DNA of 64,000 nucleotides, taken from a virus (Duplodnaviria > Heunggongvirae > Uroviricota > Caudoviricetes). This document shows, piece after piece, positions 10,995 to 54,412 of the stretch (the stretch's first letter is position 1; every line of letters begins with the position of its first letter). The stretch is taken from the IMG/VR virus record IMGVR_UViG_3300017971_007904; one strand, 5' to 3'. Below the pieces are notes generated by a model that was not told the DNA's origin, did not search any database, and saw only the letters and a program-made list of their open reading frames with translations. A program made the translations under genes and the position numbers.

Positions 10995-11027
10995 GTCAAC
11001 CATTCCGAATAAGTAAGGAGAAATATC

Positions 11028-15694: not shown

Positions 15695-15735
15695 TTGGAA
15701 ACCAGCAGGATTGACCCGCAATTTTGGAGGTAGCT

Positions 15736-17898
15736 ATGTCCACCGAGAATCCGGCCCCAGCCAGTGCCGTCGACAATGGTCAATCGACCTTTGATAAACT
15801 GGCCAAATCTTTCGACTGTGAAGAGTTCCGCAAGCTCACAACTGAGATGACCTTCTCCGAGTATCTCGAAGAGGCCGAGCGGAACCCCCTGGTGTGCCTC
15901 AGCGCCTACCAGAGAATCTACGACATGGTTCTTTCCGCTGGTGTCGAGCGCATCAAGCGGTTCAACAGAACCTTCACCCGCTACAAGTTCTTCGCCGAAC
16001 ATCCGGAGTTTCCGATCTACGGCCTGGAACAGGCCATCGACGGCTTCGTTGGCAACCTGAAAGGTGCCGCTGGGTACTATGGTACCGAAAAGCGAATCCT
16101 CCTGTTGCACGGCCCGGTCGGCTCGTCGAAGTCCACCGCTGTCCGAGCGCTCAAGCGGGGCTTGGAAGAGTACACCATGACGGATCGGGGTGCCCTCTAT
16201 ACCTTCGATTGGATTGACCTACCCGTCGAAGACGACGACGACGGCCCCGGCCTGGAGCTTCGCAAAATTGCGCCGTGCCCCATGCAGGACGACCCCGTCA
16301 AACTCATCCCGCCCGGCCCGATGCGAAAAGAGATGGAGAAGAAGCTCAACGTCGCATTGGAGAACATGAAACTCAGCGATGACGAAGCCGTCGACGCCGA
16401 GCTTCACCGCATCTTCAAGATTCGCCTGGATGGTGAACTCAACCCGCACGACAAGTTCTTCTACCGTGAGTTGCTTCGTCGCTACAAGGGCGACTGGCGG
16501 AGGGTCATGGAGAAGCACATTCGTGTGCGGCGTGTCGTCCTCTCCGAGTCCGACCGTGTCGGCATCGGTACGTTCAGCCCCAAGGACGAGAAGAACCAGG
16601 ATTCGACGGAGTTGAGTGGCGATGTCAACTATATGAAGTTGGGCCAGTACGGTGTCGACTCCGACCCCCGTGCCTTCAACTTTGATGGTGAGTTCGAGGT
16701 GAGCAACCGAGGGCTCTTGGAGATGATCGAAATGCTCAAACTCAACCAGGAGTTCTTGTACGACCTCCTGGGGGCAGCACAAGAGCGACAGATCAAACCC
16801 AAGAAGTTCCCGCAGGTTGGCATCGACGTGTGCATCCTCGGCCACACCAACGATCCGGAATACCAGAAGCTCCTCAAAAACGAGTGCATGGAGGCGCTGA
16901 AGGATAGGACGATTCGGGTCGACTGGCCCTACGTCCTTCGTTGGGAAGACGAGATCAATGTCCTTCGTCACGACTACAACCAGGAAAGGGTTCGACAGCA
17001 CATCGCTCCCCACACCATCGAGATCGCAGCGCTGTTCGCAATTCTCACCCGGTTGAAGACCGACAAGAACATCAAGCTCGATCCGGTCAAGAAGGCCAAG
17101 CTCTACAACGGCCAGACCGTCCCCGGCTATACGGAAGAAGCCGTCAAGGAGTTGATGGACGCCGAACCGTCCGAGGGTATGGACCAGGGCATCAGCGCCC
17201 GTTACGTCCAGAACAAGCTGTCGAACTCCCTCGTGTCCCACCACGACTACGTCAACCCGTTCATGGTTCTCCACGAACTGAAAGAGGGTCTGAAGACCTA
17301 CTCCCTCGTCGGTGACAACGAAAACCGTCGTGCGTTCTACGAGACGTGCGTCGACCTCGCCAAGAAGGAGTTGGACGAGATTCTCAAGAACGAGGTTCGT
17401 CGGGCTCTCGTTATGGACGATGAAGCCATCAGTCGGATGTTCACCTCGTACTTGGACAACGTCTTCGCCTATATCAACAACGAGAAGGTGAAGAACGAGT
17501 ACACCGGTGAGTTCGAGGAACCGAATGAGCGGTTGATGCGGTCCATCGAAGAGAAGATCGACGTTCCCGATCAGGGTGTCGACGACTTCCGCCGCAGCAT
17601 CGCCGCTTACGTCGGCCACATCACCCGCAACGAGGGCGAGAAGGCCCTCAAGTGGGACAGCAACCCCGATCTTGCAAGGGCACTGGAATTGAAGCTGTTC
17701 GAGGAAACGAAGGACAGCATCAAGCTCAGCAGCCTTACCAAGGTCACCGGCGTCATCGACCCGGATATGCAAGAGAAGATCAACCAGATCAAAACCCGGT
17801 TGGTCAAAAACTACGGTTACGACGAGCGCAGTGCGACCGACGTGTTGAACTACGTCGGCTCCATCTTCGCCCGTGGTGACATGGTCGAACAGCAGTAA
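15736..17898 (+). CDS. prkA: PrkA/YeaG-family serine protein kinase (AAA+ N-terminal domain)
   Basis: Walker A LLLHGPVGSSKST in a PrkA-type AAA domain; 721 aa from the ATG at 15736 (GGAGG SD); the C-terminal half matches the PrkA kinase region. Confidence 0.85.
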   Translation: MSTENPAPASAVDNGQSTFDKLAKSFDCEEFRKLTTEMTFSEYLEEAERNPLVCLSAYQRIYDMVLSAGVERIKRFNRTFTRYKFFAEHPEFPIYGLEQAIDGFVGNLKGAAGYYGTEKRILLLHGPVGSSKSTAVRALKRGLEEYTMTDRGALYTFDWIDLPVEDDDDGPGLELRKIAPCPMQDDPVKLIPPGPMRKEMEKKLNVALENMKLSDDEAVDAELHRIFKIRLDGELNPHDKFFYRELLRRYKGDWRRVMEKHIRVRRVVLSESDRVGIGTFSPKDEKNQDSTELSGDVNYMKLGQYGVDSDPRAFNFDGEFEVSNRGLLEMIEMLKLNQEFLYDLLGAAQERQIKPKKFPQVGIDVCILGHTNDPEYQKLLKNECMEALKDRTIRVDWPYVLRWEDEINVLRHDYNQERVRQHIAPHTIEIAALFAILTRLKTDKNIKLDPVKKAKLYNGQTVPGYTEEAVKELMDAEPSEGMDQGISARYVQNKLSNSLVSHHDYVNPFMVLHELKEGLKTYSLVGDNENRRAFYETCVDLAKKELDEILKNEVRRALVMDDEAISRMFTSYLDNVFAYINNEKVKNEYTGEFEEPNERLMRSIEEKIDVPDQGVDDFRRSIAAYVGHITRNEGEKALKWDSNPDLARALELKLFEETKDSIKLSSLTKVTGVIDPDMQEKINQIKTRLVKNYGYDERSATDVLNYVGSIFARGDMVEQQ

Positions 17899-17923
17899 CG
17901 CTCGCTGGGTTAGGGACGACCAG

Positions 17924-17966
17924 CCCCCACCTGTCGCTGCACGCTGCGACAGGTGGGGGCATTTTA
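17924..17966 (+). terminator. Rho-independent terminator after prkA
   Basis: CCCCCACCTGTCGC / GCGACAGGTGGGGG 14-bp stem followed by ATTTT. Confidence 0.7.
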
Positions 17967-17979
17967 CCCGAGGTTTGTC

Positions 17980-18258
17980 ATGGTCAAGTACGTTAACTTT
18001 CAGGTTCCCGGTTTTGGTTCGGTTGTGTCGGTCGAGTCGGGGCATTCGCTCGTCCGGTTGGCCCAGTTGCCGTTAGAAGATGCTATCGTTGCCCTGAAGG
18101 ATTGGGGTAAGAAGTTTCGCAAAAGGTTGATACAGCAATCAGCAACCCCACGAGACCGTTATACCGAATTGGCCCCTTATAACAACCCTCAAGGTTACAC
18201 GGAGCAATCTGCCCAGGATGTTTTCAATCACGTAGGTCAACTACTGGCCACTTCGTAG
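17980..18258 (+). CDS. small protein resembling the PrkA C-terminal tail
   Basis: ATG with GAGG SD; C-terminus GYTEQSAQDVFNHVGQLLA parallels the PrkA C-terminus GYDERSATDVLNYVGSIFA. Confidence 0.4.
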   Translation: MVKYVNFQVPGFGSVVSVESGHSLVRLAQLPLEDAIVALKDWGKKFRKRLIQQSATPRDRYTELAPYNNPQGYTEQSAQDVFNHVGQLLATS

Positions 18259-18268
18259 GAGGTGCAAC

Positions 18269-19501
18269 ATGCCACGGCGCATACAAGAAGATCATAAGAT
18301 GTTCCGAGACGTAGTGTCCGGAACCACAAGACGGGAGTTGAAGAAGTGGATTAAGAGTGGTCGTATCGTCCGCCGTCGAGGTAAGGACAAGCTTGCCATT
18401 CCGATCCCCCGAATCGACCTCCCGCATTTCATATTCGGTAGGCCGACCGAAGGCATCGGTCGGGGGCCCGGCAAGGATGGTGACAAGGTCGGTGAAGAAC
18501 CTGCCCCAAATCAAGGCGACGGGGCCAGCACCGATCCAGGTGATGCCATCCTGGTCGATGTCGACATGGAACGAATCCTCAAGGAAATGGGCGAGGATTG
18601 GGGCTTGCCGAACATGCTCCCGAAAGAGAACGCCACTTTCGAGGAAGTGAAGATTCGGTACAACAGCTTGTCGAAGATCGGCCCGCCGAGTTTGCTTCAC
18701 AAGCGGAAGACCATTCTTCAAACCCTCAAACGTATGTCGGCCATGGGCCAGTTGGGTCCGGAGAACGCACGGATACTCCCCGGTTACAACGTGCCCGTCA
18801 CGCCGCTGATTCCAATCAAGGATGATATGCGGTTTCGCAAGTGGACGGAGCAGCGCATCCCGTCCAGCAACGCCGTCATCTTCTTCGCCCGTGATATCTC
18901 GGGTTCGATGACGACATACAAGTGCGAGATCGTTTCGGACATGGCGTGGTGGATCGATATGTGGATTCGCCAGTTCTATGAAAAAACTGAGCGGGTCTAC
19001 GTTGTTCACGACACCCGTGCCAAAGAAGTCGACGAAGAACGGTTCTACAAGCTCAGGATGGGTGGTGGAACCATTTGCAGTAGCGCACTGAGGTACATCG
19101 CCAAACAGTTGAAGCATCGCTATCCCCCGGAGAAATGGAACGTGTACGTGTTCTATTTTTCGGACGGCGACAACTGGATGGACGACAACGACAAGTTCGT
19201 CAAGGTTCTCCGTGATGACCTTCCGCCCGACAAGGTCAACTTGTTTGGCATGACGCTGATTCTTCCCTGGTGCCAGGAGGGGCTCAAGGAACACCTGGAT
19301 GCTTTGATCAAGAATGGCAAGCTTGACAACAAGTTCATCCGTACCACCGGCATTGATCGTCCGGACAAGGATAAGAACGACCGGTGGGGTTGGTGGTGGT
19401 GGGACGAAACCATGGATGAAGATGCCCGTAACGATGCCATCCGCAACGCTATCCGAGAGTTGCTGGGGGCTCACGATCAGGCTTCCGAAAAAGCCGCATA
19501 A
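18269..19501 (+). CDS. yeaH: YeaH/YhbH-family DUF444 (vWA-like) protein
   Basis: vWA-like core FFARDISGSM...YVFYFSDGDNW; size and position between prkA and spoVR as in bacterial yeaG-yeaH-ycgB loci. Confidence 0.85.
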   Translation: MPRRIQEDHKMFRDVVSGTTRRELKKWIKSGRIVRRRGKDKLAIPIPRIDLPHFIFGRPTEGIGRGPGKDGDKVGEEPAPNQGDGASTDPGDAILVDVDMERILKEMGEDWGLPNMLPKENATFEEVKIRYNSLSKIGPPSLLHKRKTILQTLKRMSAMGQLGPENARILPGYNVPVTPLIPIKDDMRFRKWTEQRIPSSNAVIFFARDISGSMTTYKCEIVSDMAWWIDMWIRQFYEKTERVYVVHDTRAKEVDEERFYKLRMGGGTICSSALRYIAKQLKHRYPPEKWNVYVFYFSDGDNWMDDNDKFVKVLRDDLPPDKVNLFGMTLILPWCQEGLKEHLDALIKNGKLDNKFIRTTGIDRPDKDKNDRWGWWWWDETMDEDARNDAIRNAIRELLGAHDQASEKAA

Positions 19502-19515
19502 TTGGAGGTGCAACC

Positions 19516-21144
19516 ATGCCCAGTACGATGTTGCACGGGTCGCCGATTTTACTCGACGACAATACCGTGCCCGGCGTGAAGTACACGCCAGAACTTGAGG
19601 AGGTTATTCCAAAGGTCATCCAAGCGTGCTTGGACTTCGGGCTCAAGCCCTACAAGCCTGTTGTCGAGGTCCTCACATACGATGACATTTCGGAGGTGGC
19701 TGCCTACGGGGGCTTCCCCGTGAGGTTCCCCCACTGGTCCTTTGGGATGGAGTATGAAGAACTCAGCAAAGGCTATGAGTTCGGCATGCACAAGATTTAC
19801 GAGATGGTAATCAATACCAATCCGGCATACATCTACTGTCTCGATTCCAACCCCCTGCTCGACCACGTTACGGTCATCGCTCACGCCACAGGCCACAGCG
19901 ATTTCTTCCGCCAGAACGTCTGGTTCGAGCCGACTACCGAGAACGCTCTGAACGAATTGGCCAACCACGGCAGCCGGATTCGGCGGTACATGGACCGCTG
20001 GGGCCGGGAGAAGGTCGGCCAGTTCATCGATTGGGTCCTTTGCGTCGACGATCTGATCGACCTATCCGCATCGTGGCGGTCGAGGCAGGTCAAAGAGCTA
20101 CGAGTCAAGGATAGGCGGGAATACCACTACCCCCGTCGACTCAAGCTGCCGTCGACCGAGGACGAAGAGCACGATTACATGGAACCCTGGATCAACGACG
20201 ATCAGTGGAAGAAGTTCGAGAAGGAACGTCTGGCTCGCCTGGAAGCGGCGCAGACCTTGAACATCTTCAAAGGTAACGACAAGGATGTCCTGGGTTACCT
20301 CGTCAAGAACGCTCCGTTGGTCCCCTGGCAACAGGACATCATCAGTATGCTCTACCGGGAGGCGCAATACTTTGCCCCCCAAGCCTTGACCAAGATGATG
20401 AACGAGGGCTGGGCGTCCTACGTCGATTACAACATCATGGCCCGAAAGCATTGGGCTGGTGGTGGTGGAATCTACGACTACTCCAAGCACAAGATGGGTG
20501 TGCTGGGTGGTAAGTACTCGACCAACCCGTATGCCGTTGGGTTTAAGCTCTTCCTTTACATTGAAGAGCGATGGAACAAGGGCCGCTTCGGAAGGGAATA
20601 CGAGCAGTGCGAAGACATGACCAAGAGGAAGAATTGGGACACGAAGGCCGGTAAGGGCCACGAGAAGGTGTTCGAGGTTCGGGAAATCCACAACGACCTG
20701 ACGGCGATCCAGCAGTTCGTCGACCAGGAGTTCGTGGACCAGTACGAACTCTACGTCTGGGAGAAGTTCCCACGACCGGACGGCGGGTTCGACTACCGGA
20801 TCAAGACACGGGATGCCAAGGAGATCAAGAAAATCCTCATGCAGAGGTACTCCAACGGTGGTCGTCCCGACATCCGCCTTACCGACCCGAACTACGCCAA
20901 CAAGGACATCCTCTTATTGCAACACTTTTGGGAGGGACGAATCCTCGCCCGGCGCTACGCCCAGGCCACCCTCGTCTGCCTCTGGAACCTCTGGAACCAG
21001 GGTGGCGTGGCCGGAAAGCGGCCTGTCGCCGTTGCGACGAAGGACAAGGACGGCGAAGAATTTGTCTACGTCTGCACCGGTACCAAACCGGAGCAGAACC
21101 AGATTCTCCGTCGCAAGAAGTTCGAGGAAGAGTTCGGCTCCTAA
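19516..21144 (+). CDS. spoVR: SpoVR/YcgB-family protein
   Basis: Conserved FPHWSFGMEYEEL, IYEMVINTNPAYIY, HATGHSDFF motifs; 542 aa. Confidence 0.88.
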   Translation: MPSTMLHGSPILLDDNTVPGVKYTPELEEVIPKVIQACLDFGLKPYKPVVEVLTYDDISEVAAYGGFPVRFPHWSFGMEYEELSKGYEFGMHKIYEMVINTNPAYIYCLDSNPLLDHVTVIAHATGHSDFFRQNVWFEPTTENALNELANHGSRIRRYMDRWGREKVGQFIDWVLCVDDLIDLSASWRSRQVKELRVKDRREYHYPRRLKLPSTEDEEHDYMEPWINDDQWKKFEKERLARLEAAQTLNIFKGNDKDVLGYLVKNAPLVPWQQDIISMLYREAQYFAPQALTKMMNEGWASYVDYNIMARKHWAGGGGIYDYSKHKMGVLGGKYSTNPYAVGFKLFLYIEERWNKGRFGREYEQCEDMTKRKNWDTKAGKGHEKVFEVREIHNDLTAIQQFVDQEFVDQYELYVWEKFPRPDGGFDYRIKTRDAKEIKKILMQRYSNGGRPDIRLTDPNYANKDILLLQHFWEGRILARRYAQATLVCLWNLWNQGGVAGKRPVAVATKDKDGEEFVYVCTGTKPEQNQILRRKKFEEEFGS

Positions 21145-21320: not shown

Positions 21321-21989
21321 ATGCCTAGAGGTCCTAAGAAGCAAATCCCGCAATCAGAGGTGTCACAACTAATCAATGACGTGCATGGTTTGAATATCAA
21401 TGCACGAACCAGAGAACTCTTCTTAATGGGATATGCGGGAGATTCGCAGGAAGAAGACCCTGGAGTTGATTACCGTTCAGCCGGTACCTTTTTGAAGAAC
21501 TTGCACATCTTAGAGACCCTTGGCCGCTCCAAAATCATCGTCCACATGCAAATCACGGGCGGTGAGTGGAGTTATGGTATGGGCATTTACAATGCCATCC
21601 AGGCGGCAAAATCTTCTGTTACGATAGTCGCCTATGCTCACGCCACTTCGATGAGTGGTGTGATCCTTCAGGCGGCTGATAACCGCATCCTGATGCCGGA
21701 TACGCACTTCATGTTGCACTACGGTTCTCTGGGGATCGAATCGACCTCACAGGCCGTTTTAGCGTGTGTGGAGCAGAATGAGCGGGATAACAAGCGGATG
21801 CTTGAAATCTTCGCTGAGCGGGCCGTAGAGGGCCCACATTTCCGTGCCAAGCGGTGGGGCGTGAAACGAGTGTCCGATTACATCGACCACGAGATGCGGC
21901 AGAAAGGTGATTGGTACCTGAGCGCCACGGAGGCTGTGGAGTATGGCTTTGCGGATGGTGTCTTAGGACGAGACATTACGAAAGTATGA
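21321..21989 (+). CDS. ClpP-family (S14) serine peptidase
   Basis: ClpP-like core with catalytic Ser in ATSMSG and His in MPDTHFMLHYG; 222 aa. Confidence 0.75.
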   Translation: MPRGPKKQIPQSEVSQLINDVHGLNINARTRELFLMGYAGDSQEEDPGVDYRSAGTFLKNLHILETLGRSKIIVHMQITGGEWSYGMGIYNAIQAAKSSVTIVAYAHATSMSGVILQAADNRILMPDTHFMLHYGSLGIESTSQAVLACVEQNERDNKRMLEIFAERAVEGPHFRAKRWGVKRVSDYIDHEMRQKGDWYLSATEAVEYGFADGVLGRDITKV

Positions 21990-22664: not shown

Positions 22665-25193
22665 ATGAAGAAGTGTGAAACGTGTGGCCTAGAGCATTTG
22701 CATCGACACTCAGATTTCTCTCTCCTAGACGGGTTTGCTACCGTCGAGGAGTATGCGGCTTACTCCGAGGCCGCTAATCAGAAGTATCTGTGTATCAGCG
22801 ACCACGGTATGCTTGGTTGCATCCCCCGCCAGATTCGGGCTTGTGACGAGTACAATCTTCAGCCGGTATTTGCCTGTCTTACCGCTGGCCAGCCGATATA
22901 TCTAAAGGATGGAATCAAGCCAATCGAAGAGGTATTGGTTGGTGATCAGGTGTTGACCGATAAGGGTCGTTATCGCAAAGTACTACGAGTGATGAGTCGG
23001 CGGTATCAGGGAAGTCTTTATAAAGTCAAGTTGGCGAACCAAACTGGTAGAGCCTTGATGCAAACGCTAACAGGGGAGCATCCGATTCTCATAAGGAGCT
23101 ATAATGGTCAATATAGCTGGATACCAGTATCGCAAATATTGACAGGCCGTCCCACTACGAAGCGTGGACTTAAAAACCACAATTCGTATGTCTGTTATCC
23201 GCAGAGCAGATCGTCACGTTCTGTAACTTTGAAGATTAGTGACTATCTTCCTGATATTTTTGAATGCGGTGATACCATTGTTCGTACTGGTTGGAAAGGG
23301 GTAGCTGCTTATGAGTGGGAAATTCCACCTGAGTTTGAATTAGATGAGAATTTTGCATATTTCTTGGGCTTATATGTGGCGGAAGGCTCATCGACCACCA
23401 ATAAAAAAGGTTTGCCAAATGGAGCTATGAGGTTGTCATTACATGCCAAAGAGTCTCCTTTGGTGGAAAGGTGCCAACCTGCTGTTGAAGCATTTGGTAT
23501 CAAATTTCATTTGTATCCACGACCTGAGATCAATCGTTTAGATGTTCATTTTGGTTGTCTACCCTTATCTTACATCATTAGGCAACTGTGCGGTATTGGA
23601 TCGCATTGCAAAAAAGTACCCTCCCCAATCTTTCAAAGCTCACTTTCGGTGAAAAAGGCTTTTATGGAAGGTTTGATGGATGGCGATGGCAAAATTAGTG
23701 GTGTGCAAGATGTGTTGAGGGTAGCGTCAAAAGAGTTGGCGTGGGGTGTCAAGAGATTGTTATCCGATTTAGGGTATTGGTCTAATGTTGGGCTTTCTAA
23801 GGATGGTGACAAGGAGTGCTACCATCTCAGTTATTGTCCGGAACGAACATATGCTAGAAGTTTTGTCGAAGATGGCTCTGTAATGTCACCGGTTCAAGAC
23901 ATTGTTGAATTACGTGATCAAGATGTCATGGTATACAATTTAGAGGTAGAAGAGGACAACAGCTATGTCAGTTATTTCGCTGTACATAACTGTGAGTTGT
24001 ACGTCAACAACGCACAACCCATTTGCCGAGACCCAGAAGACTACGTCAAATACGTCGAAGAGAACTCTCCCGAGACGAAGGAGACCCTTCGTAAGTCCTA
24101 TCATCTACTGGCGATAGCTTACACGAATCAAGGTTACAGCAACCTCGTACAGCTTGCGTCGTGGGGCCACATTTATGGTTGGGGTGGCGTACCACGTCGA
24201 CCACGGATCACGCACGAGCAGTTGATGAAGCACAAAGAGGGCTTGATCTTTTCATCGTGTTGCTATCTCTCGGAGATTGGTCAAACCTTTGATCGGTACG
24301 GTCGAGATGCCGCTTTTGCCATGATCGAGAAGTACATGGCCATGTTTGGCGATAACTTCTATCTGGAGTTGATGCTCTTGGACTTCAAGAAGCAAAAGCC
24401 ATACGACCAGTTTCTTATTGAGGCTCATGACCGGTATCACATCCCTCTGAACATCACGCAGGATTGCCACTACTGCAAACAAGAGGATGCTAAGTACCAG
24501 CAGTATATGCTGATGATACGCACGAAGCACACGGTGGCTGACATTGAGGCGGCTATCGAACAGGGTGAGGCAAGGGAAGGTTTCTTTGAGTTACAGGATC
24601 AGCAACTTTGGATGAAAACTGAAGAGGAGTTGAACGAAAAGTGGAACGAAGATTACACCGACGCAATCCCGTATGAACTCTTTTGTCAGGCTAAGCATAA
24701 CACGGTCGAGATATGTCGGAAAGCCGAAGGAGTTGAGATCGACCGTACCATCAAGTTGCCCGAAATCGACGAGGCTGACGAGAAGCTCTGGGAGGGGCTT
24801 TGTAAAGGTTTCAAATGGCGAGGTTTGGAGGGTAAGGCTGACTATATGCAACGCTTGAGAGAGGAGTATGAGCTTATCTGCCGCAAAGACTTCTCCAGTT
24901 ACTTTCTCTTGACAAAGATGTTTACGGATGAGGGTCGTCGAGCGTGCCCCAAACTGATTGGTTGGGGAACTGGCGAAGAGGCAATTAGCCCTGGCCGAGG
25001 GTCGGGTGTGAGCTTCCTATCCAATTACGTCTTGGGTATTACGGATGTTGATCCAATCCGCCACGACTTAGTCCCAGAAAGGTTCCTCAGTGATGCACGG
25101 GGTGGTCGTCAACTGAAGCTACAGTTTGATAGTGAGCCGATTAGTACGGCTCATAGTCATCCGGAATCTCCCAATCATCCGGAATCGGAATGA
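22665..25193 (+). CDS. dnaE: DNA polymerase III alpha subunit (DnaE), N-terminal fragment (PHP domain through the GPGRGSG region), interrupted by an intein
   Basis: PHP motif LHRHSDFSLLDG; after the intein, SYFLLTKMF...SPGRGSGVSFLSNYVLGITDVDPIRHDLVPERFLSDAR aligns with E. coli DnaE ~residues 300-400; the last ~30 aa are non-homologous. Confidence 0.85.
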   Translation: MKKCETCGLEHLHRHSDFSLLDGFATVEEYAAYSEAANQKYLCISDHGMLGCIPRQIRACDEYNLQPVFACLTAGQPIYLKDGIKPIEEVLVGDQVLTDKGRYRKVLRVMSRRYQGSLYKVKLANQTGRALMQTLTGEHPILIRSYNGQYSWIPVSQILTGRPTTKRGLKNHNSYVCYPQSRSSRSVTLKISDYLPDIFECGDTIVRTGWKGVAAYEWEIPPEFELDENFAYFLGLYVAEGSSTTNKKGLPNGAMRLSLHAKESPLVERCQPAVEAFGIKFHLYPRPEINRLDVHFGCLPLSYIIRQLCGIGSHCKKVPSPIFQSSLSVKKAFMEGLMDGDGKISGVQDVLRVASKELAWGVKRLLSDLGYWSNVGLSKDGDKECYHLSYCPERTYARSFVEDGSVMSPVQDIVELRDQDVMVYNLEVEEDNSYVSYFAVHNCELYVNNAQPICRDPEDYVKYVEENSPETKETLRKSYHLLAIAYTNQGYSNLVQLASWGHIYGWGGVPRRPRITHEQLMKHKEGLIFSSCCYLSEIGQTFDRYGRDAAFAMIEKYMAMFGDNFYLELMLLDFKKQKPYDQFLIEAHDRYHIPLNITQDCHYCKQEDAKYQQYMLMIRTKHTVADIEAAIEQGEAREGFFELQDQQLWMKTEEELNEKWNEDYTDAIPYELFCQAKHNTVEICRKAEGVEIDRTIKLPEIDEADEKLWEGLCKGFKWRGLEGKADYMQRLREEYELICRKDFSSYFLLTKMFTDEGRRACPKLIGWGTGEEAISPGRGSGVSFLSNYVLGITDVDPIRHDLVPERFLSDARGGRQLKLQFDSEPISTAHSHPESPNHPESE
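22875..23990 (+). mobile_element. intein (372 aa) with LAGLIDADG homing-endonuclease domain inserted in the DnaE PHP domain
   Basis: N-splice block CLTAGQPIYL, block B TLTGEHPIL, LAGLIDADG-like FAYFLGLYVAEGS and FMEGLMDGDGKIS, C-terminal VYNLEVEE...FAVHN followed by extein Cys (CELYV). Confidence 0.8.
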
Positions 25194-25919: not shown

Positions 25920-27149
25920 ATGGGTAAATACCGTGCTTTTGATGATTTCGTTGAAGGTAAGAAGCTTGATGACAAGCCCCCTAAGAAGGCGAAGGTGAGT
26001 GCTGATGTGCCACCACAAGGTAAGAACCCCACGCCTTATTACGGCCCTCATGCGAAGAACGACCCCAAGCCGAAGCTGAGAGTTGTCGAGAAGCCAGCTA
26101 ATGCACTTGGCGATGAGGCAACACCGGCGCTGAAAAAACCCGAAGATAACCTTCCCTCTGGTAAGAAGCCGTCTCACGACCATATGACAATCGAGAGATA
26201 CATCGAAGCTAGGAATAAGGGTAAGAAGATCAAGGATGAGTACGATGGCAAAGTTCGTGTCAGGGTGACTGATAAGGTTGAAGCGGGTCTCGGCGACGAG
26301 GCTAGCCCCCGCATGGAGAAGCCAGATACGAACCTCCCCACGGGCAAAAAGCCGACTCGAAAGGGTTTGACTACTGAGGAATACTTGAGGGAAACGGAGG
26401 AGCTTTCCGACTCCGAGTTCATCATCTCTGAGGTAAAAAAAACGAAAAACGACGATGAAGATGTCGGCCCGGTAATGCATTGCCAACGAAGGGGTATCGC
26501 AATAGTCCCCTCATCGAGTGAGGCAGCTAGTTACATGGCCAGCGTTATACCCATCAATGATCGTGCGGTGCGAACACTCGTACACGAAGTGATAAACACT
26601 CCGGGTGCATTGGGAGCTTTGATCGCAGAATTGGCAGCACATAATGATACCTACTCAGAACTTGTAGGTCAGATGAATGGTCCTGATTCAAGAGTACCAC
26701 GTCGTTTGGTGAAAGCAATGAGAGAAGACTATGATAAGTTCATGTCAGACCTCGGGCTCAACGAAGCGGTGAATGCACCAATGGATGATCGGGATAAGGC
26801 TGCCGACCCGGTCCCGGCCCCGGCCCCCGAAGGAGCAGCCTCACCTACGTCTGAGATTACAGCAGGTGCTAGTTTAATGGGACCGGAAGGTGTTCCCGGT
26901 GGACCAGCCCCAGCAGCAGGACCAGGACCAGGACCAGGACCAGGACCAGTAGGGCCGCCTCCAGCACCGGCACCGGGACCTCCAGCGCCAGCGGCAGGTG
27001 CGCCAGCAATGCCGCCAGCAACGCCGCCAACAGCGGGTGGACGACAGCCACTAGCGGCAAACAGGAAGTTTGCATACCATCACGTCCTGAAAGAGATGGG
27101 CAAACACGATAACATGATGAATTATATGAGAGAGATAATAGGTGGTTAA
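25920..27149 (+). CDS. repeat-containing Pro/Ala/Gly-rich protein
   Basis: Two ~45-aa repeats (ALGDEATPALKKPEDNLPSGKKPS... / GLGDEASPRMEKPDTNLPTGKKPT...) and a C-terminal PAPAPGPGPGPGP tract; SD AGGAGA. Confidence 0.6.
   Translation: MGKYRAFDDFVEGKKLDDKPPKKAKVSADVPPQGKNPTPYYGPHAKNDPKPKLRVVEKPANALGDEATPALKKPEDNLPSGKKPSHDHMTIERYIEARNKGKKIKDEYDGKVRVRVTDKVEAGLGDEASPRMEKPDTNLPTGKKPTRKGLTTEEYLRETEELSDSEFIISEVKKTKNDDEDVGPVMHCQRRGIAIVPSSSEAASYMASVIPINDRAVRTLVHEVINTPGALGALIAELAAHNDTYSELVGQMNGPDSRVPRRLVKAMREDYDKFMSDLGLNEAVNAPMDDRDKAADPVPAPAPEGAASPTSEITAGASLMGPEGVPGGPAPAAGPGPGPGPGPVGPPPAPAPGPPAPAAGAPAMPPATPPTAGGRQPLAANRKFAYHHVLKEMGKHDNMMNYMREIIGG
26919..26948 (+). repeat. (GGACCA)x5 hexanucleotide tandem repeat inside the CDS (encodes GPGPGPGPGP)
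   Basis: Direct reading of the sequence. Confidence 0.8.
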
Positions 27150-27150
27150 C

Positions 27151-27582
27151 ATGACAAGATTCAAATCGTGGAACGAGTACGCTACGGAACGTGCGGCAAA
27201 CGAAGGTAAGGAGCCAACAAACGAAAGTAAGGACACCAAGAAGGAGTTCATCCATCTTTCTAAGACGCCTGAAGAGCAGAATGCTACGTGCTCTGGTGAG
27301 CCCCTTGATCTGACTTACCGTGAGGAAGACGAGTATAAGAAGATGTTAGACTTCCTTCGAGGTAAGAAGAATGTCCCCGATCCTCCGAAACCACCCGCCG
27401 AAGCACCGAAAGGTTGGTTCATCGCCGATGAGCAGAGCCGTGGTTTCTGGTATGACAATGGTTGGACTCAAGACACTAGTTTCCTCAATGAAGCGGTTAT
27501 CGATTCAGAGCGAGCAGCACACGCTTTAGCCCAGGTTGTGGGCGGCGTTGTCATCCCCGCTGAAGAGGTAATGGGTAACTGA
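27151..27582 (+). CDS. hypothetical protein
   Basis: ATG at 27151 with AGGTGG SD; 143 aa. Confidence 0.5.
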   Translation: MTRFKSWNEYATERAANEGKEPTNESKDTKKEFIHLSKTPEEQNATCSGEPLDLTYREEDEYKKMLDFLRGKKNVPDPPKPPAEAPKGWFIADEQSRGFWYDNGWTQDTSFLNEAVIDSERAAHALAQVVGGVVIPAEEVMGN

Positions 27583-27635
27583 CATTGACTCAGTTTTCTC
27601 CATAAATTACAATACGTCTACTCCATTGGGAGTAA

Positions 27636-27985
27636 GGGGGCGACAGGTATCGATTGGCTATGTCGATAACGGGTTGCCTGCCGTGGTTGGTCAGCAGGCC
27701 ACGTAAAAAGCCGACCACTAAACTTTAAGTGCCGAACCGGTACGAATGGCTGCTTAAGAGTAGCCCAGGCCAAGGAAGCCCGCCAGCGGCGTCCGGAAGC
27801 CTGCCGAAAATGTTGGCTGGATTCAGGTCATTGTCGACTACGCCTGGGTTGAGATCAGTTGTCATGACTAGCCGTTAGAACTTTGTTCGCCGAGGTCGAA
27901 TCGGTAAAACCAAAAGACGAACTATTGCAGGTAGACGCCTTTTTGAGACTAGTGCAACACAGCGGTTCGAGTCCGCTCGCCTCCA
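27636..27985 (+). ncRNA. ssrA: tmRNA (ssrA)
   Basis: 5' GGGGGCG pairs with 3' CGCCUCC as a 7-bp acceptor stem carrying the G3:U70 alanine identity pair; T-arm AGCGG-UUCGAGU-CCGCU; internal GGUUGG...CGUAAAAAGCCG closely matches E. coli tmRNA upstream of the tag ORF; candidate tag reading frame GCC GAA CCG GUA CGA AUG GCU GCU UAA (AEPVRMAA) at 27730-27756; discriminator A; CCA not fully encoded. Confidence 0.8.
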
Positions 27986-27994
27986 CTTTCTACA

Positions 27995-28040
27995 CCACCA
28001 CCCTTCCAGCCTAGTGGCTGGAAGGGTGGTGGCCCCTTTC
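27995..28040 (+). terminator. Rho-independent terminator after the tmRNA
   Basis: CCACCACCCTTCCAGCC / GGCTGGAAGGGTGGTGG 17-bp stem, 4-nt loop, then CCCCTTTCT. Confidence 0.7.
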
Positions 28041-28053
28041 TGAGGACGAACCG

Positions 28054-28260
28054 ATGAAAAGTCTTCCCTACCTTATCATGTTGTTCGTTATTTTTCCACT
28101 TGGCATCTGGCATCATTTTTGCAATAAAGTGGTGGTAACAGGCCCGGCAACTCCCCACGAGTTCATGATTGCGAATTACAGCCAACACCCCGTCTTCACA
28201 GGGGTCTTTTTCGGAGTCTTTGTACTAATACTCGTCTTGATGGCGATTACTTGGAAGTAA
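28054..28260 (+). CDS. small hydrophobic membrane protein
   Basis: 68 aa with two predicted TM helices. Confidence 0.4.
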   Translation: MKSLPYLIMLFVIFPLGIWHHFCNKVVVTGPATPHEFMIANYSQHPVFTGVFFGVFVLILVLMAITWK

Positions 28261-28283: not shown

Positions 28284-28418
28284 ATGAAACGGCTTTCAAT
28301 GTTAATCTATGATGTTTATCCGTGTGAAGGTTATCTTGCCGCCGACCCTCCTGACAACCCAGAGATTTCGGCACCGGACTCCATCGACTTATCAGAAGTT
28401 GGAACGGAACGAGAATGA
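28284..28418 (+). CDS. 44-aa upstream ORF translationally coupled to the GluRS-like gene (possible leader peptide)
   Basis: Strong SD AGGAGGT 6 nt upstream; its stop TGA overlaps the ATG of the next gene (gaATGa); its first 15 nt ATGAAACGGCTTTCA nearly duplicate the start of the next gene (ATGAAAACGGCTTTCA). Confidence 0.4.
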   Translation: MKRLSMLIYDVYPCEGYLAADPPDNPEISAPDSIDLSEVGTERE

Positions 28419-29743
28419 AAACGGCTTTCATTTACCACGCCTCCTGGGTGCCCGGATTGCATCTTGGAGCAGCCCGACTTGCGCTGTTGAACTACCTTTA
28501 TGCCAAAAAGCATGGTGGTTCGTGTGTTCTTATCTGTAATGATATCGCATCGCCGCCCAAGCCGTTCCACGACAGCCTCCCAATGTTGTTGGAGTGGCTG
28601 AACATCCGCTGGGGGGAAGGCCCATACCACAACGTCCACTTCAGGGGGAAGTATCGTGAGGTGGTAGAGCGTCTGCTCAGTTGCAACTTGGCCTATTACG
28701 ATTACGCCACACCGGAGGAGATTCACAGCGAGCAGCAAGCTGCTCGTAAGTCGAAGGAGCCATTCCTTTACAGTCGCTTGTATGAAGGTCACACGCCCAC
28801 TGACTGCCGGAACTGGGAGGCAGAAGGCCGGAAAGCTGTTATTAGGCTTCGGATGCCTCGGACGGATGATGAGACCTACCGTTACGAAGAGGCGATTATG
28901 GATGATATGATCTACGACCGCAAGATTACCGATCTGGCGACGGAAAATGACTACGTCATTCAGCGAACTGACGGCAGTTACACAACATATCTCACGCAAG
29001 CGGTTGATTACGATCTCCACAACATCGATGTTGTGTTCAGGGACATCAATGATCGGGCTTCGTTAGCCGCCGAAACCTTCATTGCCAGATGGGCGGGCTT
29101 GAAGCAGCCTAAGTTTGGCCATATTCCTTACTTTGCTGGGCCTGTTGGCTCTCATCGGTTCTCACCCAAGCACGATAAGGATTATGCCCGCCACGTCGAG
29201 TTTTGCGAGATGCTCGATCTGGTCATGGAGATTGACGCCAAGATTCCAACTTACTCACAATGGGGCGTTTTTCATCCGTGTTATGTGCGATTTTACGAGA
29301 AGGTTGGATTCCTCCCAGAGGCGGTTTCTCACTACCTGTATCAGTCGCTCCTGAAAACGTCTGTAGAATGCGATTCTAGGCCCCTCACAGCCTCTCAGAT
29401 GGCCTCTAAGCTCGAATTGGACTCAGTAGACCCTGGTATAAAACAATTCGATACAGAGGCTCTGGAAGCCTGCCAGAGGGAGGCTATGAAAGGCTGCGGA
29501 TTAGGGCGTAAAGCTAAGCTCATTCACTCATTGGCTCGCTCGATCCGCCCCTTCGATTACAAGCGTGATTTTGGAGGCGTGCAATCAGAAGCGGTTCAAG
29601 CCTTTAAGGATTTTGCTGAAAGCCAGGACCTCTTCTTGATAGGAGAGGCGGCTCTTCGCCCAAATGATCTTCCATGCGGCTTTGCACCTGAGCCTACGCT
29701 TGAAGAGGACGCTTTTACCAACGAAGGCTGTCCACACAGTTGA
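28415..29743 (+). CDS. class-I aminoacyl-tRNA synthetase catalytic-domain protein, glutamyl-tRNA synthetase / GluQ-RS-like
   Basis: N-terminal WVPGLHLGAARLALLNYLYAKKHGGSCVLICNDI resembles the GluRS HIGH region (PSPTGxLHxGxARTALxNWLxAR..GGxFxLRIEDTD); 442 aa, no recognisable anticodon-binding domain. Confidence 0.65.
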   Translation: MKTAFIYHASWVPGLHLGAARLALLNYLYAKKHGGSCVLICNDIASPPKPFHDSLPMLLEWLNIRWGEGPYHNVHFRGKYREVVERLLSCNLAYYDYATPEEIHSEQQAARKSKEPFLYSRLYEGHTPTDCRNWEAEGRKAVIRLRMPRTDDETYRYEEAIMDDMIYDRKITDLATENDYVIQRTDGSYTTYLTQAVDYDLHNIDVVFRDINDRASLAAETFIARWAGLKQPKFGHIPYFAGPVGSHRFSPKHDKDYARHVEFCEMLDLVMEIDAKIPTYSQWGVFHPCYVRFYEKVGFLPEAVSHYLYQSLLKTSVECDSRPLTASQMASKLELDSVDPGIKQFDTEALEACQREAMKGCGLGRKAKLIHSLARSIRPFDYKRDFGGVQSEAVQAFKDFAESQDLFLIGEAALRPNDLPCGFAPEPTLEEDAFTNEGCPHS

Positions 29744-32299: not shown

Positions 32300-34936
32300 A
32301 TGACGAAGAAGGAACTGCTGAAGAAGTTATGCCTTGGGCGAATGAAGAAACTAGGCATACTTGATGCTGCGCACCTTGCTCGTCTCAAGAATGAACTTAT
32401 CGAGATCGAAGTTCAGGACCAATACGAGTATTTTCTAGGCCATTGTAAGAGTGGAACCCGCTGGGAACACAACGACCACAATCTGTTGGTTCCTTATCTC
32501 CTCAATCTATGTCCCGAGTTTGATATCACGAAGGAAACCGCCTTTACGATGGGTGAGTTTCCGGACATCGATGTGGACTATCTGGCTGTCGTGCGTGAGT
32601 ATCTGATGAACGAGTGGGCTCCAAAAAAGTTCGGAGCCGACAAGGTTTGCCATATTGGCACCTATTCCACGTACAACCTCAAACAGTCGCTAATCGACAT
32701 GGCTCGCATCTTTGGCGAGAGTAGAACTGAAGTGATGAATGTCACGACCCAGTTTGGTGCGAAGGATGACGAGGGTGATGCTTTGACCTGGGAAAAAGCC
32801 CTAACCATCTATCCGTCCTTTCGAGAGTACGTCAAGAACCACCCCGACGTGGCGGATGCCGCAAAGAAGATTTGTGGTCGGAATCGCAATATGGGCCAGC
32901 ATGCTGGTGGTTTCATTGTGTCTCGAACGCCCCTGACTGGTTTTGTACCATTGGTCCGAAACAAGAAGGATAACCAGCTTATGACGGCGTGGCCCGAGGG
33001 GCAGTCGGCGCAGGAGCTACAGGCGGTGGGCTTGGTAAAGCTGGACTTACTTTCGAGCAAGATGTCGACCCAGATCAAGGACTGTATTGGTTTGATTCGC
33101 CAGCGTCACGGCGAGGTGAAGATTTCGGCAAGAGAGGGGGGCTCGAATTGGTCGGATCATTCGTACTTGGACGATCCGAAGTGTATGGAAATGGCCAATA
33201 AGGGTGACTTACGATTCATCTTCCAATTTGATTCAGATGGTATCCGTCGTCTCGTTAGGACTGGTGGCGTCGATGGGTTTCAGGACTTAGAGGCATATTC
33301 GGCGTTATATCGTCCTGGGACCCTGAGCATGGGCATGCATGACGTGTACTGCAACCGGAAGAAAGGTAAGGAGGTATTCGACATACACCCTGTCTTGGAG
33401 CCGTATTTGCAAAAGACGTATGGTGTAGCAGTCTTCCAAGAGAGCGTGATGAAGGTTCTAAACAAGGCGGGCGGAATCCCGCTGCGGGATTGTATGGCGG
33501 TAATTAAGGCCATCAGCAAGAAGAAAATCGAGAAGTTTGCGAAGTACAAAGAGCTATTCATCCGGAACAGCCAGAGGATTCTGGGGATCAAGAAGGAGGC
33601 TGCCGGGCAGTTTTGGGAGCAGATTGAGGCGTTTGCTGGTTACGGGTTTAACAAGGCTCACTCTTGCGTCTATACGCATGTAAGCGCCCGACAGCTATAT
33701 CTGAAGTGTTACTATCCACTGGAGTACTATTGTAGTTATCTGAATCACATCAAAGGCGCAGACGCAAAGATGCGTGATTGTGTGCGGGATGCTGCTCGAC
33801 ACAATGTAACGGTTAACTCAATCGACATCAACAAGTCGGAAGAGCATTTTCAGATTGCGGATGACGATGAAATCTACTTCGGATTTGCCAACGTCAAGCA
33901 TGTGGGCGAGAAAGTGGCTACGAGGTTAGTAGAAGAGCGACGTAACGGCCCCTTTACGGACTTCCAGAACTTCCTAGATCGATTTGGGACGGATGCCAAG
34001 ATCATCCAGGCCCTTGTTTCTCTGGGGGCCTTTGAGGGTGATCCGGTTTGTCTCTACGAGTATTACGAGTACTACAAGGATTATCACACGAAGCAGACGC
34101 AGCGACGGAAGAGGTATGAGGTAGCACTTAAGAGGTACGAAGATCAATTCCATGAATTTGCCGGTCACAATTTCGCCTTTGGTACTGAGGAGCAGATTAC
34201 CTTCGCAATCGATAATATCGATGATGAGGAGGCTAAGGCAAAGCTTCGTCGCCTGCGTGGGAACTATCGCCGTACCTTGACGAACAATACAAACAACGAG
34301 CGGAACGATACAGGCCCTGTATCATTTGAAAATTTCGTTTCGCCAAAGAAATCTGCTATCAAAGAGGACCTTCGCAAGATTCTACAAGACAAGGCAGTAG
34401 CCGAAATTGAGTATTACGGTTTCACATGGTCCAGCCCGCTGGAAAGTTGCCCTAATCTCGAAGGGGACACGTTTGCGGAATACCGGTCTGCCCGTCTAGC
34501 TTTGGGCCCCGTGGAGGGAGCTATACAGGATGTGCGGGAGGTGAAGAGCCGAAAGGGTAATAAGTACTACGTTGTACAGCTTCTGGATGCTAACTGGGAA
34601 CTTGGGTTCGTCAATGTCTGGACGGCAGACATGGCTGAGTTTACCGATAAGTTGAAACCTGGGAATATTGTCCGCATGCGGCTTCAGGCTCCCAATCCTA
34701 AGTTTGCTTCTGAGCGGTACAGTCTGGAAAGCTACCCTCGGAAGCGACGGGGTATCACACGAGAACAGTCAAACGCTCGTGTTATGATACTACGTTCTCC
34801 GGATCAAGAGGTAAAGGTCGTGACCAATGAGCCCCCAATTACTCTTGATAAGGAAAGGGAAAAGAAATTGGAGGTAAAAGAGGATGTCGAAACAGCCGAA
34901 CTGTACCAAGACCTCGACAAACTCCTCGGCTTATGA
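32300..34936 (+). CDS. dnaE: DNA polymerase III alpha subunit (DnaE), C-terminal fragment (palm/fingers/thumb core)
   Basis: PDIDVDY, GQHAGGFIVSRTPL and FNKAHSCVYTHVSARQLYLKCYYPLEYY catalytic-core motifs; its N-terminal ~80 aa re-encode the helical region (ARLKNELIEIEVQDQYEYFL) also present at the end of the N-fragment. Confidence 0.88.
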   Translation: MTKKELLKKLCLGRMKKLGILDAAHLARLKNELIEIEVQDQYEYFLGHCKSGTRWEHNDHNLLVPYLLNLCPEFDITKETAFTMGEFPDIDVDYLAVVREYLMNEWAPKKFGADKVCHIGTYSTYNLKQSLIDMARIFGESRTEVMNVTTQFGAKDDEGDALTWEKALTIYPSFREYVKNHPDVADAAKKICGRNRNMGQHAGGFIVSRTPLTGFVPLVRNKKDNQLMTAWPEGQSAQELQAVGLVKLDLLSSKMSTQIKDCIGLIRQRHGEVKISAREGGSNWSDHSYLDDPKCMEMANKGDLRFIFQFDSDGIRRLVRTGGVDGFQDLEAYSALYRPGTLSMGMHDVYCNRKKGKEVFDIHPVLEPYLQKTYGVAVFQESVMKVLNKAGGIPLRDCMAVIKAISKKKIEKFAKYKELFIRNSQRILGIKKEAAGQFWEQIEAFAGYGFNKAHSCVYTHVSARQLYLKCYYPLEYYCSYLNHIKGADAKMRDCVRDAARHNVTVNSIDINKSEEHFQIADDDEIYFGFANVKHVGEKVATRLVEERRNGPFTDFQNFLDRFGTDAKIIQALVSLGAFEGDPVCLYEYYEYYKDYHTKQTQRRKRYEVALKRYEDQFHEFAGHNFAFGTEEQITFAIDNIDDEEAKAKLRRLRGNYRRTLTNNTNNERNDTGPVSFENFVSPKKSAIKEDLRKILQDKAVAEIEYYGFTWSSPLESCPNLEGDTFAEYRSARLALGPVEGAIQDVREVKSRKGNKYYVVQLLDANWELGFVNVWTADMAEFTDKLKPGNIVRMRLQAPNPKFASERYSLESYPRKRRGITREQSNARVMILRSPDQEVKVVTNEPPITLDKEREKKLEVKEDVETAELYQDLDKLLGL

Positions 34937-40999: not shown

Positions 41000-41206
41000 A
41001 TGAGCGTTTGCAATGTAAGAGTAGTTAACAGGCGGGGCTTTGAGCAGATGTTGAGAGCTTTCCGCCGAGCTTGTACCGAACACGGTATTCTGCATGAATG
41101 GAAAAGGCATGAATACTATGAGAAACCATCAGAGAAGCGAAGAAAGAAGGTTCGACAGATGGAGCGAGAAAAGAAGAAGGCCCAGCGTAAAAGAGGGAAA
41201 CGGTGA
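41000..41206 (+). CDS. rpsU: ribosomal protein bS21 homolog
   Basis: VRVVNRRGFEQMLRAFRRACTEHGILHEWKRHEYYEKPSEKRRKK parallels bacterial S21 ([39 protein letters not shown]..RKR). Confidence 0.8.
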   Translation: MSVCNVRVVNRRGFEQMLRAFRRACTEHGILHEWKRHEYYEKPSEKRRKKVRQMEREKKKAQRKRGKR

Positions 41207-41585: not shown

Positions 41586-42059
41586 ATGCAAATTGTCGAA
41601 TCTAACGCAATACCAACTGATGTACGTCCGGTAATCGCCGAGGAGGTTGTGGAGGCGTTTAAGGTGGCTACACAGATGGAGAAAATTTGCCGGGAACATG
41701 ACGGTTTAGGAGTAGCAGCAGTCCAAGTCGGAATCCCTTGGCAACTTTTTGTTATTGCATTAAACGGCGATTTCCGCTATTGTGTTAATTGTACATACGA
41801 GCCAACGCCGGGCACATCTCGTGCCAGTAGTATCGAGGGTTGCCTGTCGTTACCAGGAAGGTTTTTTACTGTTGAAAGGTGGGCTGAAGTTCAAGTGGAG
41901 GGTCAGGAGATCATTCTGGAGGATGGGAAGCCAGCATTTACCGCATTCAGCATGTTAACGAACTTCATCGCCTTTCAGCACGAAATTGATCATCAGAACG
42001 GAATCTTGATTAGTGACTGTGGGGGTGAAGTGTTTCTTAGGCCCCTTAAGAGAAAGTAA
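41586..42059 (+). CDS. def: peptide deformylase
   Basis: All three PDF motifs: GVAAVQVG, EGCLSLPG, HEIDHQNG. Confidence 0.88.
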   Translation: MQIVESNAIPTDVRPVIAEEVVEAFKVATQMEKICREHDGLGVAAVQVGIPWQLFVIALNGDFRYCVNCTYEPTPGTSRASSIEGCLSLPGRFFTVERWAEVQVEGQEIILEDGKPAFTAFSMLTNFIAFQHEIDHQNGILISDCGGEVFLRPLKRK

Positions 42060-54410: not shown

Positions 54411-54412
54411 AC

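Follow-up and report, generated by a model that had tools for sequence, protein, structure and literature searches.

The window analysed here is a 64,000-nucleotide stretch of the virus record IMGVR_UViG_3300017971_007904 (IMG/VR; Caudoviricetes), and the element of interest within it is a gene for transfer-messenger RNA (tmRNA, ssrA) that sits in a mostly one-directional gene array. The first-pass annotation of the sequence had proposed a tmRNA at this position, to be checked with ARAGORN and the Rfam family RF00023, and these two independent detectors concur in calling one of full length. ARAGORN finds a single RNA gene in the whole window, the tmRNA at 27636-27986 (+) with the tag AEPVRMAA-stop. 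RF00023, the sole Rfam family above threshold in the window, matches 27636-27988 across model positions 1-374 with 95.6 bits (E = 5.2e-36), well above its gathering score of 47. Chance is excluded as the source of this match. The parts of the gene and its neighbours are collected in Table 1.

Related tmRNA genes were found on other contigs. One lies on the contig L039, between an orthologue of the 146-aa gene that precedes the window tmRNA and a gene for a GluRS-like protein; it scores 99.2 bits with Rfam and encodes the tag AEVPARMAA. A motif common to the window and L039 tmRNAs (GCGANAGGTATCGATTGG) was used to find further full-length members in IMG/VR and in JGI metagenome contigs, namely L040 (same contig as L103; tag GNTQLALAA), L087 (GTNQLALAA), L096 and L127 (both GETQLALAA) and L099 (ATKANLALAA). 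L040 is an IMG/VR viral contig on which the neighbours of the tmRNA, an ATP-dependent DNA ligase, endonuclease VII and a GIY-YIG endonuclease, form a phage-like set. Another member is present in LR756511.1, a 595-kb GenBank record of an 'uncultured phage' (122 bits, tag ANPEFAMAA-stop-stop, 11444-11796 of our locus L135), where it lies between a PrkA-DUF444-SpoVR block and an intact DnaE gene and has a canonical terminator and a TTGACA/TATATA promoter placed like that of the window gene. Nucleotide identity to the window copy declines from 72% (L039) to 59% (LR756511.1) alongside the divergence of the proteins. We also noticed longer tmRNA variants of about 425 nt (L100 1535-1960; L123 1060-640, minus strand), which share a 5' GGGGGCGAAAGGUAUCGAUUGG motif; CCA is encoded in them, the terminator is U-rich and the tag, GKTLETLATLGLVREDAVVAA, has 21 residues.

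Members of this family are easily overlooked. ARAGORN misses the tmRNAs of L039 (4243-4598) and L040 (6151-6504, minus strand), to which Rfam gives 99-102 bits. The T-loop region of these RNAs (GCUUCGAUGC or GCUUCAAUGC) is a base shorter than usual. Surveys made with ARAGORN only would under-count the family. Blastn against GenBank phages with the window tmRNA, the 24 kb around it and two family members returned no match, nor did IMG/VR yield anything when scanned with the GluRS-like protein and with the 3' 22-mer of the tmRNA. The same 22-mer (GGTTCGAGTCCGCTCGCCTCCA) hit 33 loci in GTDB genomes, nearly all of them tRNA-Ala genes. A Bacteroidales tmRNA recovered in that scan was set aside as a relative, since it has no similarity outside the 3' end, and we draw no conclusion on the host from it. 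The 29 matches to a further IMG/VR pattern, GTCATTGYCGACTACGC, were likewise discarded, none of them being a tmRNA (0/29).

The tRNA-like domain of the window tmRNA is readily recognized. Both the acceptor stem with its G3:U70 pair (G 27638 with U 27982) and the tmRNA-like T-arm, which the first-pass annotation had pointed out, can be read directly from the sequence. The homologues agree with it: G:U occupies 3:70 in 7/7 aligned members and also in LR756511.1, the acceptor stem is invariant in the same set, and GGGGGCG/CGCCUCC with G3:U70 is found in all eight members that lack an encoded CCA. The D-loop region reads GGUAUCGAUUGG, a motif common to nine of the tmRNA homologues found, from which LR756511.1 deviates. 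An encoded 3'-terminal CCA apart, the sequence-level features by which membership of the tmRNA family is judged are all found in this RNA.

The mRNA-like part is equally well placed. The candidate tag AEPVRMAA-stop that had been proposed from the letters is also the one called by ARAGORN, its resume codon GCC sits on the Rfam consensus resume codon, and homologues have tags in the corresponding frame. A conserved UUUAAGU precedes the GCC. The homologue tags are 8-10 codons long, and all end in AA. The tags of the window and L039 are set apart by a 3-nt indel that keeps the frame and by a CGA/CGC change that is synonymous, and the AT-rich members L040, L087, L096 and L127 keep ...QLALAA despite synonymous CUU/CUC and GCU/GCC changes and a UAA/UGA change of the stop codon. 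Judged by these differences, it is as a peptide that the tag is conserved. MAA endings occur in the three closest members (window, L039 and LR756511.1) and ALAA endings in the more distant ones; a hydrophobic residue followed by Ala-Ala is the core ClpX degron of the ssrA tag.

Further support for the tmRNA assignment is provided by covariation among the pseudoknots (PK1-PK4) and the other helices, a check that had been suggested together with the original prediction. Seven members were aligned with MAFFT. RNAalifold recovers from this alignment the acceptor stem, helix 2, one PK1 helix, helix 5, the T-arm and the distal helices of PK3 and PK4, with compensatory changes in 35/72 pairs. The pair set that we tested was this consensus with one tag-internal helix swapped for the second PK1 helix. 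Standard pairs fill 94.8% of the cells of the tested structure, and 36 of the 72 pairs have changes on both sides. In controls with the partners slid by 1-3 columns, 36-48% of the cells were standard pairs and 3-10 pairs changed on both sides, and none of 500 column shuffles reached the observed pairing and covariation values. Both PK1 helices (helices 5 and 6 of the tested set) covary, with 100% and 98% of cells paired and 3 and 5 compensatory pairs; this pseudoknot is the internal GGUUGG...CGUAAAAAGCCG stretch that had been singled out as a close match to bacterial tmRNA. The T-arm (helix 11) has compensatory changes in 4/5 pairs.

The alignment-based test of PK2-PK4 is limited to the distal helices of PK3 and PK4 (helices 9 and 10), which covary. 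Because MAFFT does not correctly align the central region of GC-rich members with that of AT-rich ones, we searched for PK2-PK4 in each sequence separately. In five diverged members (window, L039, L099, L040 and LR756511.1) all three can be drawn from different sequences, with position and topology unchanged; with PK1 included, the five thus accommodate all four pseudoknots. The PK2 stem, for example, is CAGGC/GCCUG in the window, CGGAC/GUCCG in L039, GGCGAC/GUCGCC in L099 and ACAAUCUU/AAGAUUGU in L040, and the loop pairing of PK4 is GUUCG/CGAAC in the window, AGCCCG/CGGGCU in L039, UUUGUUC/GAACAAA in L040 and GUUUG/CAAAC in LR756511.1.

Candidate signals for expression flank the gene. A sigma-70-like promoter lies immediately upstream, in a region with 6 promoter-like sites where 1.6 are expected; its position implies a leader of about 15 nt, presumably removed by RNase P. 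Downstream, the first-pass annotation had placed a strong terminator. A perfect hairpin is indeed present 9 nt past the tmRNA, but it is not followed by a U-run (CCCCUUUCU comes next), and a terminator scan called no intrinsic terminator at 27995-28032. The hairpin probably acts as a transcription stop or as a structure that protects the 3' end. The gene does not encode CCA: the DNA reads ...CCUCC-A-CUU (27985-27988), and CCA would need to be added after transcription. All eight CCA-less members (window, L039, L099, L040, L087, L096, L127 and LR756511.1) have this A-CUU behind the acceptor stem (4595-4598 in L039 and 11796-11799 in L135), which suggests a shared signal for 3' processing.

Table 1. 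Parts of the tmRNA gene, its flanking signals and neighbouring genes in the 64-kb window
Feature	Position	Strand	Basis or remark
tmRNA (ssrA) gene, 350 nt, G1 to discriminator A	27636-27985	+	ARAGORN, Rfam RF00023, family covariation
Putative sigma-70-like promoter, TTGACT-17 nt-TACAAT	27585-27613	+	10/12 consensus matches; ends 22 nt before mature 5' end
Acceptor stem, 5' strand GGGGGCG (partner CGCCUCC, 27978-27984), G3:U70	27636-27642	+	Sequence; homologues
PK1, CGUGG/CCACG (tmRNA 47-51 with 64-68) crossing UGGUCAGC/GCCGACCA (53-60 with 75-82)	27682-27717	+	Helices 5 and 6 of tested set
Tag frame, GCC GAA CCG GUA CGA AUG GCU GCU UAA (AEPVRMAA-stop)	27731-27757 (gene positions 96-122)	+	ARAGORN
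Helix 5, GGCUGCU/AGUAGCC, UAA stop in or beside loop	27748-27765	+	RNAalifold; 90.5% of cells paired (helix 7 of tested set)
PK2, CAGGC/GCCUG and CCAGC/GCUGG	within 27766-27922	+	Per-sequence complementarity
PK3, AUUCAGG/CCUGGGU and CGACU/AGUUG	within 27766-27922	+	Per-sequence complementarity
PK4, outer hairpin ACUUUG/CGAGGU and GUUCG/CGAAC	within 27766-27922	+	Per-sequence complementarity
T-arm AGCGG-UUCGAGU-CCGCU (27961-27977), acceptor 3' strand CGCCUCC, discriminator A (27985)	27961-27985	+	Sequence, Rfam
Perfect 17-bp GC-rich hairpin	27995-28032	+	-41.3 kcal/mol, z = -7.2
PrkA	15724-17898		
DUF444	18269-19501		
SpoVR	19516-21144		
ClpP-like protease	21321-21989		Scores equally as head-maturation protease
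DnaE N-terminal half	22665-25193	+	PHP domain and start of pol III alpha domain; Hint/LAGLIDADG intein inside
PspC-domain open reading frame	between DnaE N-half and 409-aa frame		
409-aa protein	25920-27149		No assigned function; spans (GGACCA)n repeat
146-aa protein, upstream neighbour	27142-27582	+	No family match; 58% identity to L039 counterpart, also beside tmRNA region
68-aa strongly hydrophobic open reading frame, right after hairpin	28054-28260		No family match; called as gene in ENA contigs too
GluRS-like protein, downstream neighbour	28415-29743	+	Class-I Glu/Gln catalytic domain only (aa 15-250); PF00749, E = 2e-25
HAD hydrolase	after GluRS-like gene		
Two sugar-nucleotide enzymes	before DnaE C-half	-	
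DnaE C-terminal half	32300-34936	+	Remaining pol III alpha domain, finger domain, HhH
Ribosomal protein S21	41000-41206		
Peptide deformylase	41586-42059		
IF3	49985-50431		
DnaJ	54335-55501		

The genes around the tmRNA connect the window with very large phages. Among GenBank phages the best match to the window DnaE is that of LR756511.1 (40% identity), and the PrkA/DUF444/SpoVR order upstream of the tmRNA is kept in the window, in contigs L003-L005 and in LR756511.1 (L135 4066-9547). This trio (15724-21144) is a bacterial stress module of the yeaG-yeaH-ycgB type. L039 has the same gene order as the window around the tmRNA (DnaE-N, PspC, a protein of ~400 aa, a protein of ~130 aa, tmRNA, GluRS-like) and farther along carries two Gp23-type capsid genes and a prohead-protease gene of the T4 type (Peptidase_S77). 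Exact copies of window proteins are present on metagenomic contigs of 179-340 kb. Many open reading frames of the window match no family, and its gene repertoire is the one known from huge phages (PMC7162821). Other genes of cellular type that are unusual for a phage encode a response-regulator-PAS protein, two adjacent SPFH/Band-7 proteins and a thiamine-pyrophosphate enzyme (1152-2012, 9477-12620, 48271-49893).

The downstream neighbour bears out the statement of the first-pass annotation that the tmRNA stands next to an aminoacyl-tRNA synthetase-like gene. With 119 bits, where the equivalog cutoff is 290, its product stays far below the cutoffs for GluRS and GluQRS; no anticodon-binding domain was detected in it, and its C-terminus of about 190 aa gave no match. 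The anticodon-binding domain PF19269, present in cellular homologues, is absent from this protein and from its closest relative, the phage protein P0002 encoded on L039 (44% identity). The best named cellular homologues of the GluRS-like protein and of DnaJ are from Planctomycetota (33-42% identity; for the GluRS-like protein, Gemmataceae and Pirellulales at 33-35%), which makes Planctomycetota a tentative candidate for the host.

The assembly of this region deserves comment. A 28-nt (GGACCA)n repeat (26918-26945) that codes for Gly-Pro runs is the point at which the ENA MEGAHIT contigs L001-L004, assembled for two samples, part from the window and the Logan contig L005 ends; in those ENA assemblies DnaE-N and tmRNA/DnaE-C fall on separate contigs of 180-340 kb. 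We considered whether the window is a chimeric join at the repeat and rejected this as the main reading, as the 409-aa reading frame across it can be aligned over its whole length to the L039 orthologue (47% identity) and the gene order agrees. By these comparisons the gene order of the window is authentic, and the diverging ENA assemblies are structural variants or mis-joins.

The tmRNA had also been described as lying inside an insert that splits dnaE. It does lie between two DnaE reading frames, but the relatives show that the notion of an insert was overstated. The polymerase is broken between ...ERFLSDARGG (followed by a 30-aa tail; 25100-25193) and ...PDIDVDY (32300-32560), and the C-terminal half begins with an 85-aa extension before PDIDVDY that resembles a repeat of the stretch just before the break. 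The same break is found in L039 (1400-1648), but on that contig the 10 kb around the tmRNA do not include the C-half, and in LR756511.1 DnaE is intact (1179 aa, L135 13699-17238) with the tmRNA 1.9 kb upstream. Since the linkage between tmRNA and DnaE exists where DnaE is not split, the tmRNA should not be taken for the cargo of a single insertion; it has long resided in the DnaE neighbourhood. A split intein at the break was considered and rejected: the N-half ends ...ERFLSDARGGRQLKLQFDSEPISTAHSHPESPNHPESE without an intein-like start, and no signature was found. The N-half does contain an intein of its own within the PHP region (Hint and LAGLIDADG homing-endonuclease domains, ~aa 70-400); its L039 orthologue (483 aa) has no intein domains, indicating that the intein was gained or lost recently.

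To act in trans-translation the RNA would need SmpB. A phmmer search with E. coli SmpB against the six-frame translation of the window gave nothing below E = 3, and Pfam lists no SmpB there either, while the same procedure found the positive controls IF3 (E = 5e-35) and deformylase (E = 5e-9). Phage records were searched by tblastn with this SmpB and with a huge-phage SmpB; the E. coli query matched annotated SmpB genes at 100%, which validates it. The SmpB-positive huge-phage records include Lak phages (MK2500xx), LR756501-504 and LR745206, and LR756511.1 is absent from the matching records. Huge phages differ, then, over carrying SmpB, LR756511.1 having a tmRNA and no detectable SmpB. Since none was found in the window or in LR756511.1, the lineage probably relies on the SmpB of its host, and it is probably with this protein that the window tmRNA works.

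A plausible course of events can be drawn from established knowledge of trans-translation. The tmRNA would be transcribed from its own sigma-70-type promoter, RNase P would trim its 5' end, and the 3' end would be cut back to the discriminator A and supplied with CCA by a CCA-adding enzyme. Host AlaRS would recognize G3:U70 and charge the RNA with alanine. Together with SmpB, most likely that of the host, and EF-Tu, the charged tmRNA would, in the course of infection, enter ribosomes halted on mRNAs that are broken or lack a stop codon; translation would restart on GCC, add (A)AEPVRMAA and free the ribosome at UAA, and the hydrophobic-Ala-Ala C-terminus may mark the product for proteolysis of the ClpXP type. 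The likely gain is extra rescue capacity at a time when host and phage nucleases and host defences produce truncated mRNAs. Such a role is in keeping with the further genes for translation and proteostasis that the segment carries (S21, IF3, peptide deformylase, DnaJ, the ClpP-like protease and the GluRS-like enzyme), and the management of stalled ribosomes by a phage tmRNA is a reasonable inference.

That a genuine, selectively maintained, phage-borne tmRNA gene lies at 27636-27985 is, in our judgement, very nearly certain. The fuller explanation, namely a functional tmRNA gene of a very large bacteriophage that probably takes part in ribosome rescue and was inherited within a huge-phage lineage without recent copying from a host, is one that we hold with good but lesser confidence. 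Several observations weigh against it. In the window copy, helix 2 shows several non-canonical positions when aligned by Rfam, and the structure put to the covariation test was derived in part from the very alignment used for testing, although it coincides with the canonical tmRNA architecture that Rfam scores. The short tag closes with MAA in place of the canonical LAA, so that protease targeting is an assumption. Without an encoded CCA, maturation would rely on further enzymes, and no CCA-adding enzyme came to light. The SmpB check spans the 64-kb window and one relative (by tblastn). Genes for capsid, tail and terminase are all missing from the window, PHROG scans of ten large unannotated reading frames being negative for structural genes too, and the viral assignment therefore rests on relatives.

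The missing structural genes raise the question whether the window is bacterial, or a chimera of bacterial and phage DNA, and the tmRNA simply the ssrA of a host. PrkA-DUF444-SpoVR, DnaJ, IF3, S21, peptide deformylase and the sugar-nucleotide enzymes are typically cellular, and the alternative assemblies break at the repeat only 700 nt upstream of the tmRNA. We nevertheless find this reading highly improbable, as the annotated phage collection, the only one of its kind searched for DnaE, gives as its best match a 595-kb phage with the same block and its own tmRNA, L039 joins this block to Gp23 capsid and prohead-protease genes, and the continuity of the 409-aa frame across the repeat is confirmed by its L039 orthologue. 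Moreover, most reading frames are without a family match, the genes of cellular type are only 33-44% identical to bacterial ones, and no smpB is nearby. Still less credit can be given to the idea that the locus is a relic of integration, either attP-like or host-derived ssrA DNA with no function for the phage, which is largely refuted. The ssrA gene is a common integration target, and a copy of its 3' part is often found on the temperate phages and genomic islands that insert there; among the 'phage' records with SmpB, several also proved to be prophage ends bearing host flank. Yet the window gene covers the full model and is not a 3' fragment, it has a promoter of its own, Pfam scans of the window reading frames gave no integrase family, and the genome scan with the 3' 22-mer gave one bacterial tmRNA, dissimilar elsewhere. 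The position and structure of the gene are also kept, with compensatory changes, across phages whose proteins are 40-58% identical, which suggests long-term retention by the phage lineage and likewise argues against a relic.

A different question is what a phage tmRNA would do. Rather than adding rescue capacity, it might compete with and re-route the host system, displacing host tmRNA on SmpB and stalled ribosomes so that the products receive a phage-specific ...RMAA tag; such a tag might escape SspB-like host adaptors, feed a phage ClpP-like protease or blunt host responses that sense stalling. The MAA endings of the window, L039 and LR756511.1 tags (ALAA in distant members), the want of a detectable SmpB in the window and LR756511.1, which would bring competition for that of the host, and the ClpP-like gene 6 kb upstream of the tmRNA are compatible with this, and a phage molecule consisting of the tRNA-like domain only may inhibit tmRNA by SmpB titration (PMC4131195). 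However, the window tag still ends in the core ClpX degron, its difference from the host tag is hypothetical, the ClpP-like protein may as well be a head-maturation protease by its scores, and the 200-aa reading frame in the corresponding position of LR756511.1 has no Clp match. We regard competition of this kind as unlikely. No more probable, in our estimate, is its evolutionary counterpart, a phage-specialised tmRNA lineage that was vertically inherited for long in a clade of huge phages and takes over host SmpB and rescue, with the fate of the products defined by the phage; its hallmarks would be the CCA-less ACUU 3' end, MAA tags in the subclade of the window, GGUAUCGAUUGG in most members and the lack of a phage SmpB. 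The retained explanation is a phage tmRNA that probably supplements ribosome rescue during infection.

Among phages, tmRNAs are on record for mycobacteriophages of the Bxz1 group and for Bacillus phage G, with a form reduced to the tRNA-like domain in mycobacteriophage DS6A (PMC4131195); that of phage G was re-described in 2025 (PMC12484599), and tmRNAs and SmpB have been reported in metagenomic huge phages (PMC7162821). In view of these papers the novelty implied by the first-pass annotation was too high, and the window tmRNA opens no new category. It adds a well-supported case of very large phages that carry machinery for translation and quality control. What is modestly new is the evidence for long vertical retention in a huge-phage lineage, together with the shared CCA-less ACUU end, the MAA-type tags and the apparent lack of a phage SmpB; the tag variants RMAA, AMAA and ALAA make up a small family in which protease targeting can be compared.

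The closest published counterpart is the unannotated tmRNA in LR756511.1. Both are full-length genes in phages, that of LR756511.1 in one of several hundred kb, with PrkA-DUF444-SpoVR upstream and DnaE downstream, and they share the acceptor stem with G3:U70, the ACUU end without CCA, a tag ending in MAA, a promoter of their own and a hairpin behind the gene. They differ in the tag (ANPEFAMAA in LR756511.1, AEPVRMAA in the window), in GC content (43% versus 54%) and in sequence, with only 59% nucleotide identity, and whereas DnaE is intact and downstream of the tmRNA in LR756511.1, two reading frames flank the tmRNA in the window. The hairpin of LR756511.1 is followed by a U-run, that of the window is not. 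With bacterial SsrA (RF00023, E. coli) the window tmRNA shares the tRNA-like domain, G3:U70, four pseudoknots, an Ala resume codon, the stop in the helix-5 loop and a hydrophobic-Ala-Ala tag end; the E. coli tag, however, has 10 codons and ends in ALAA, compared with 8 codons and RMAA, and the window gene is phage-borne and CCA-less, has no smpB nearby and reads GGUAUCGAUUGG in the D-loop region. The tmRNAs of the Bxz1 group and phage G are, like that of the window, complete genes in large phages with tRNA or translation genes, the cultured ones being lytic, but the hosts differ, the window tmRNA shows no blastn-detectable similarity to any GenBank phage, and the phage G tag (AKLNITNNELQVA) is longer and ends differently (PMC12484599). 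Finally, the DS6A ssrA and the attP sites made of ssrA 3' fragments are also phage-borne and derived from ssrA, but DS6A lacks the mRNA-like part and the attP sites are fragments, whereas the window tmRNA is complete and has a conserved tag frame.

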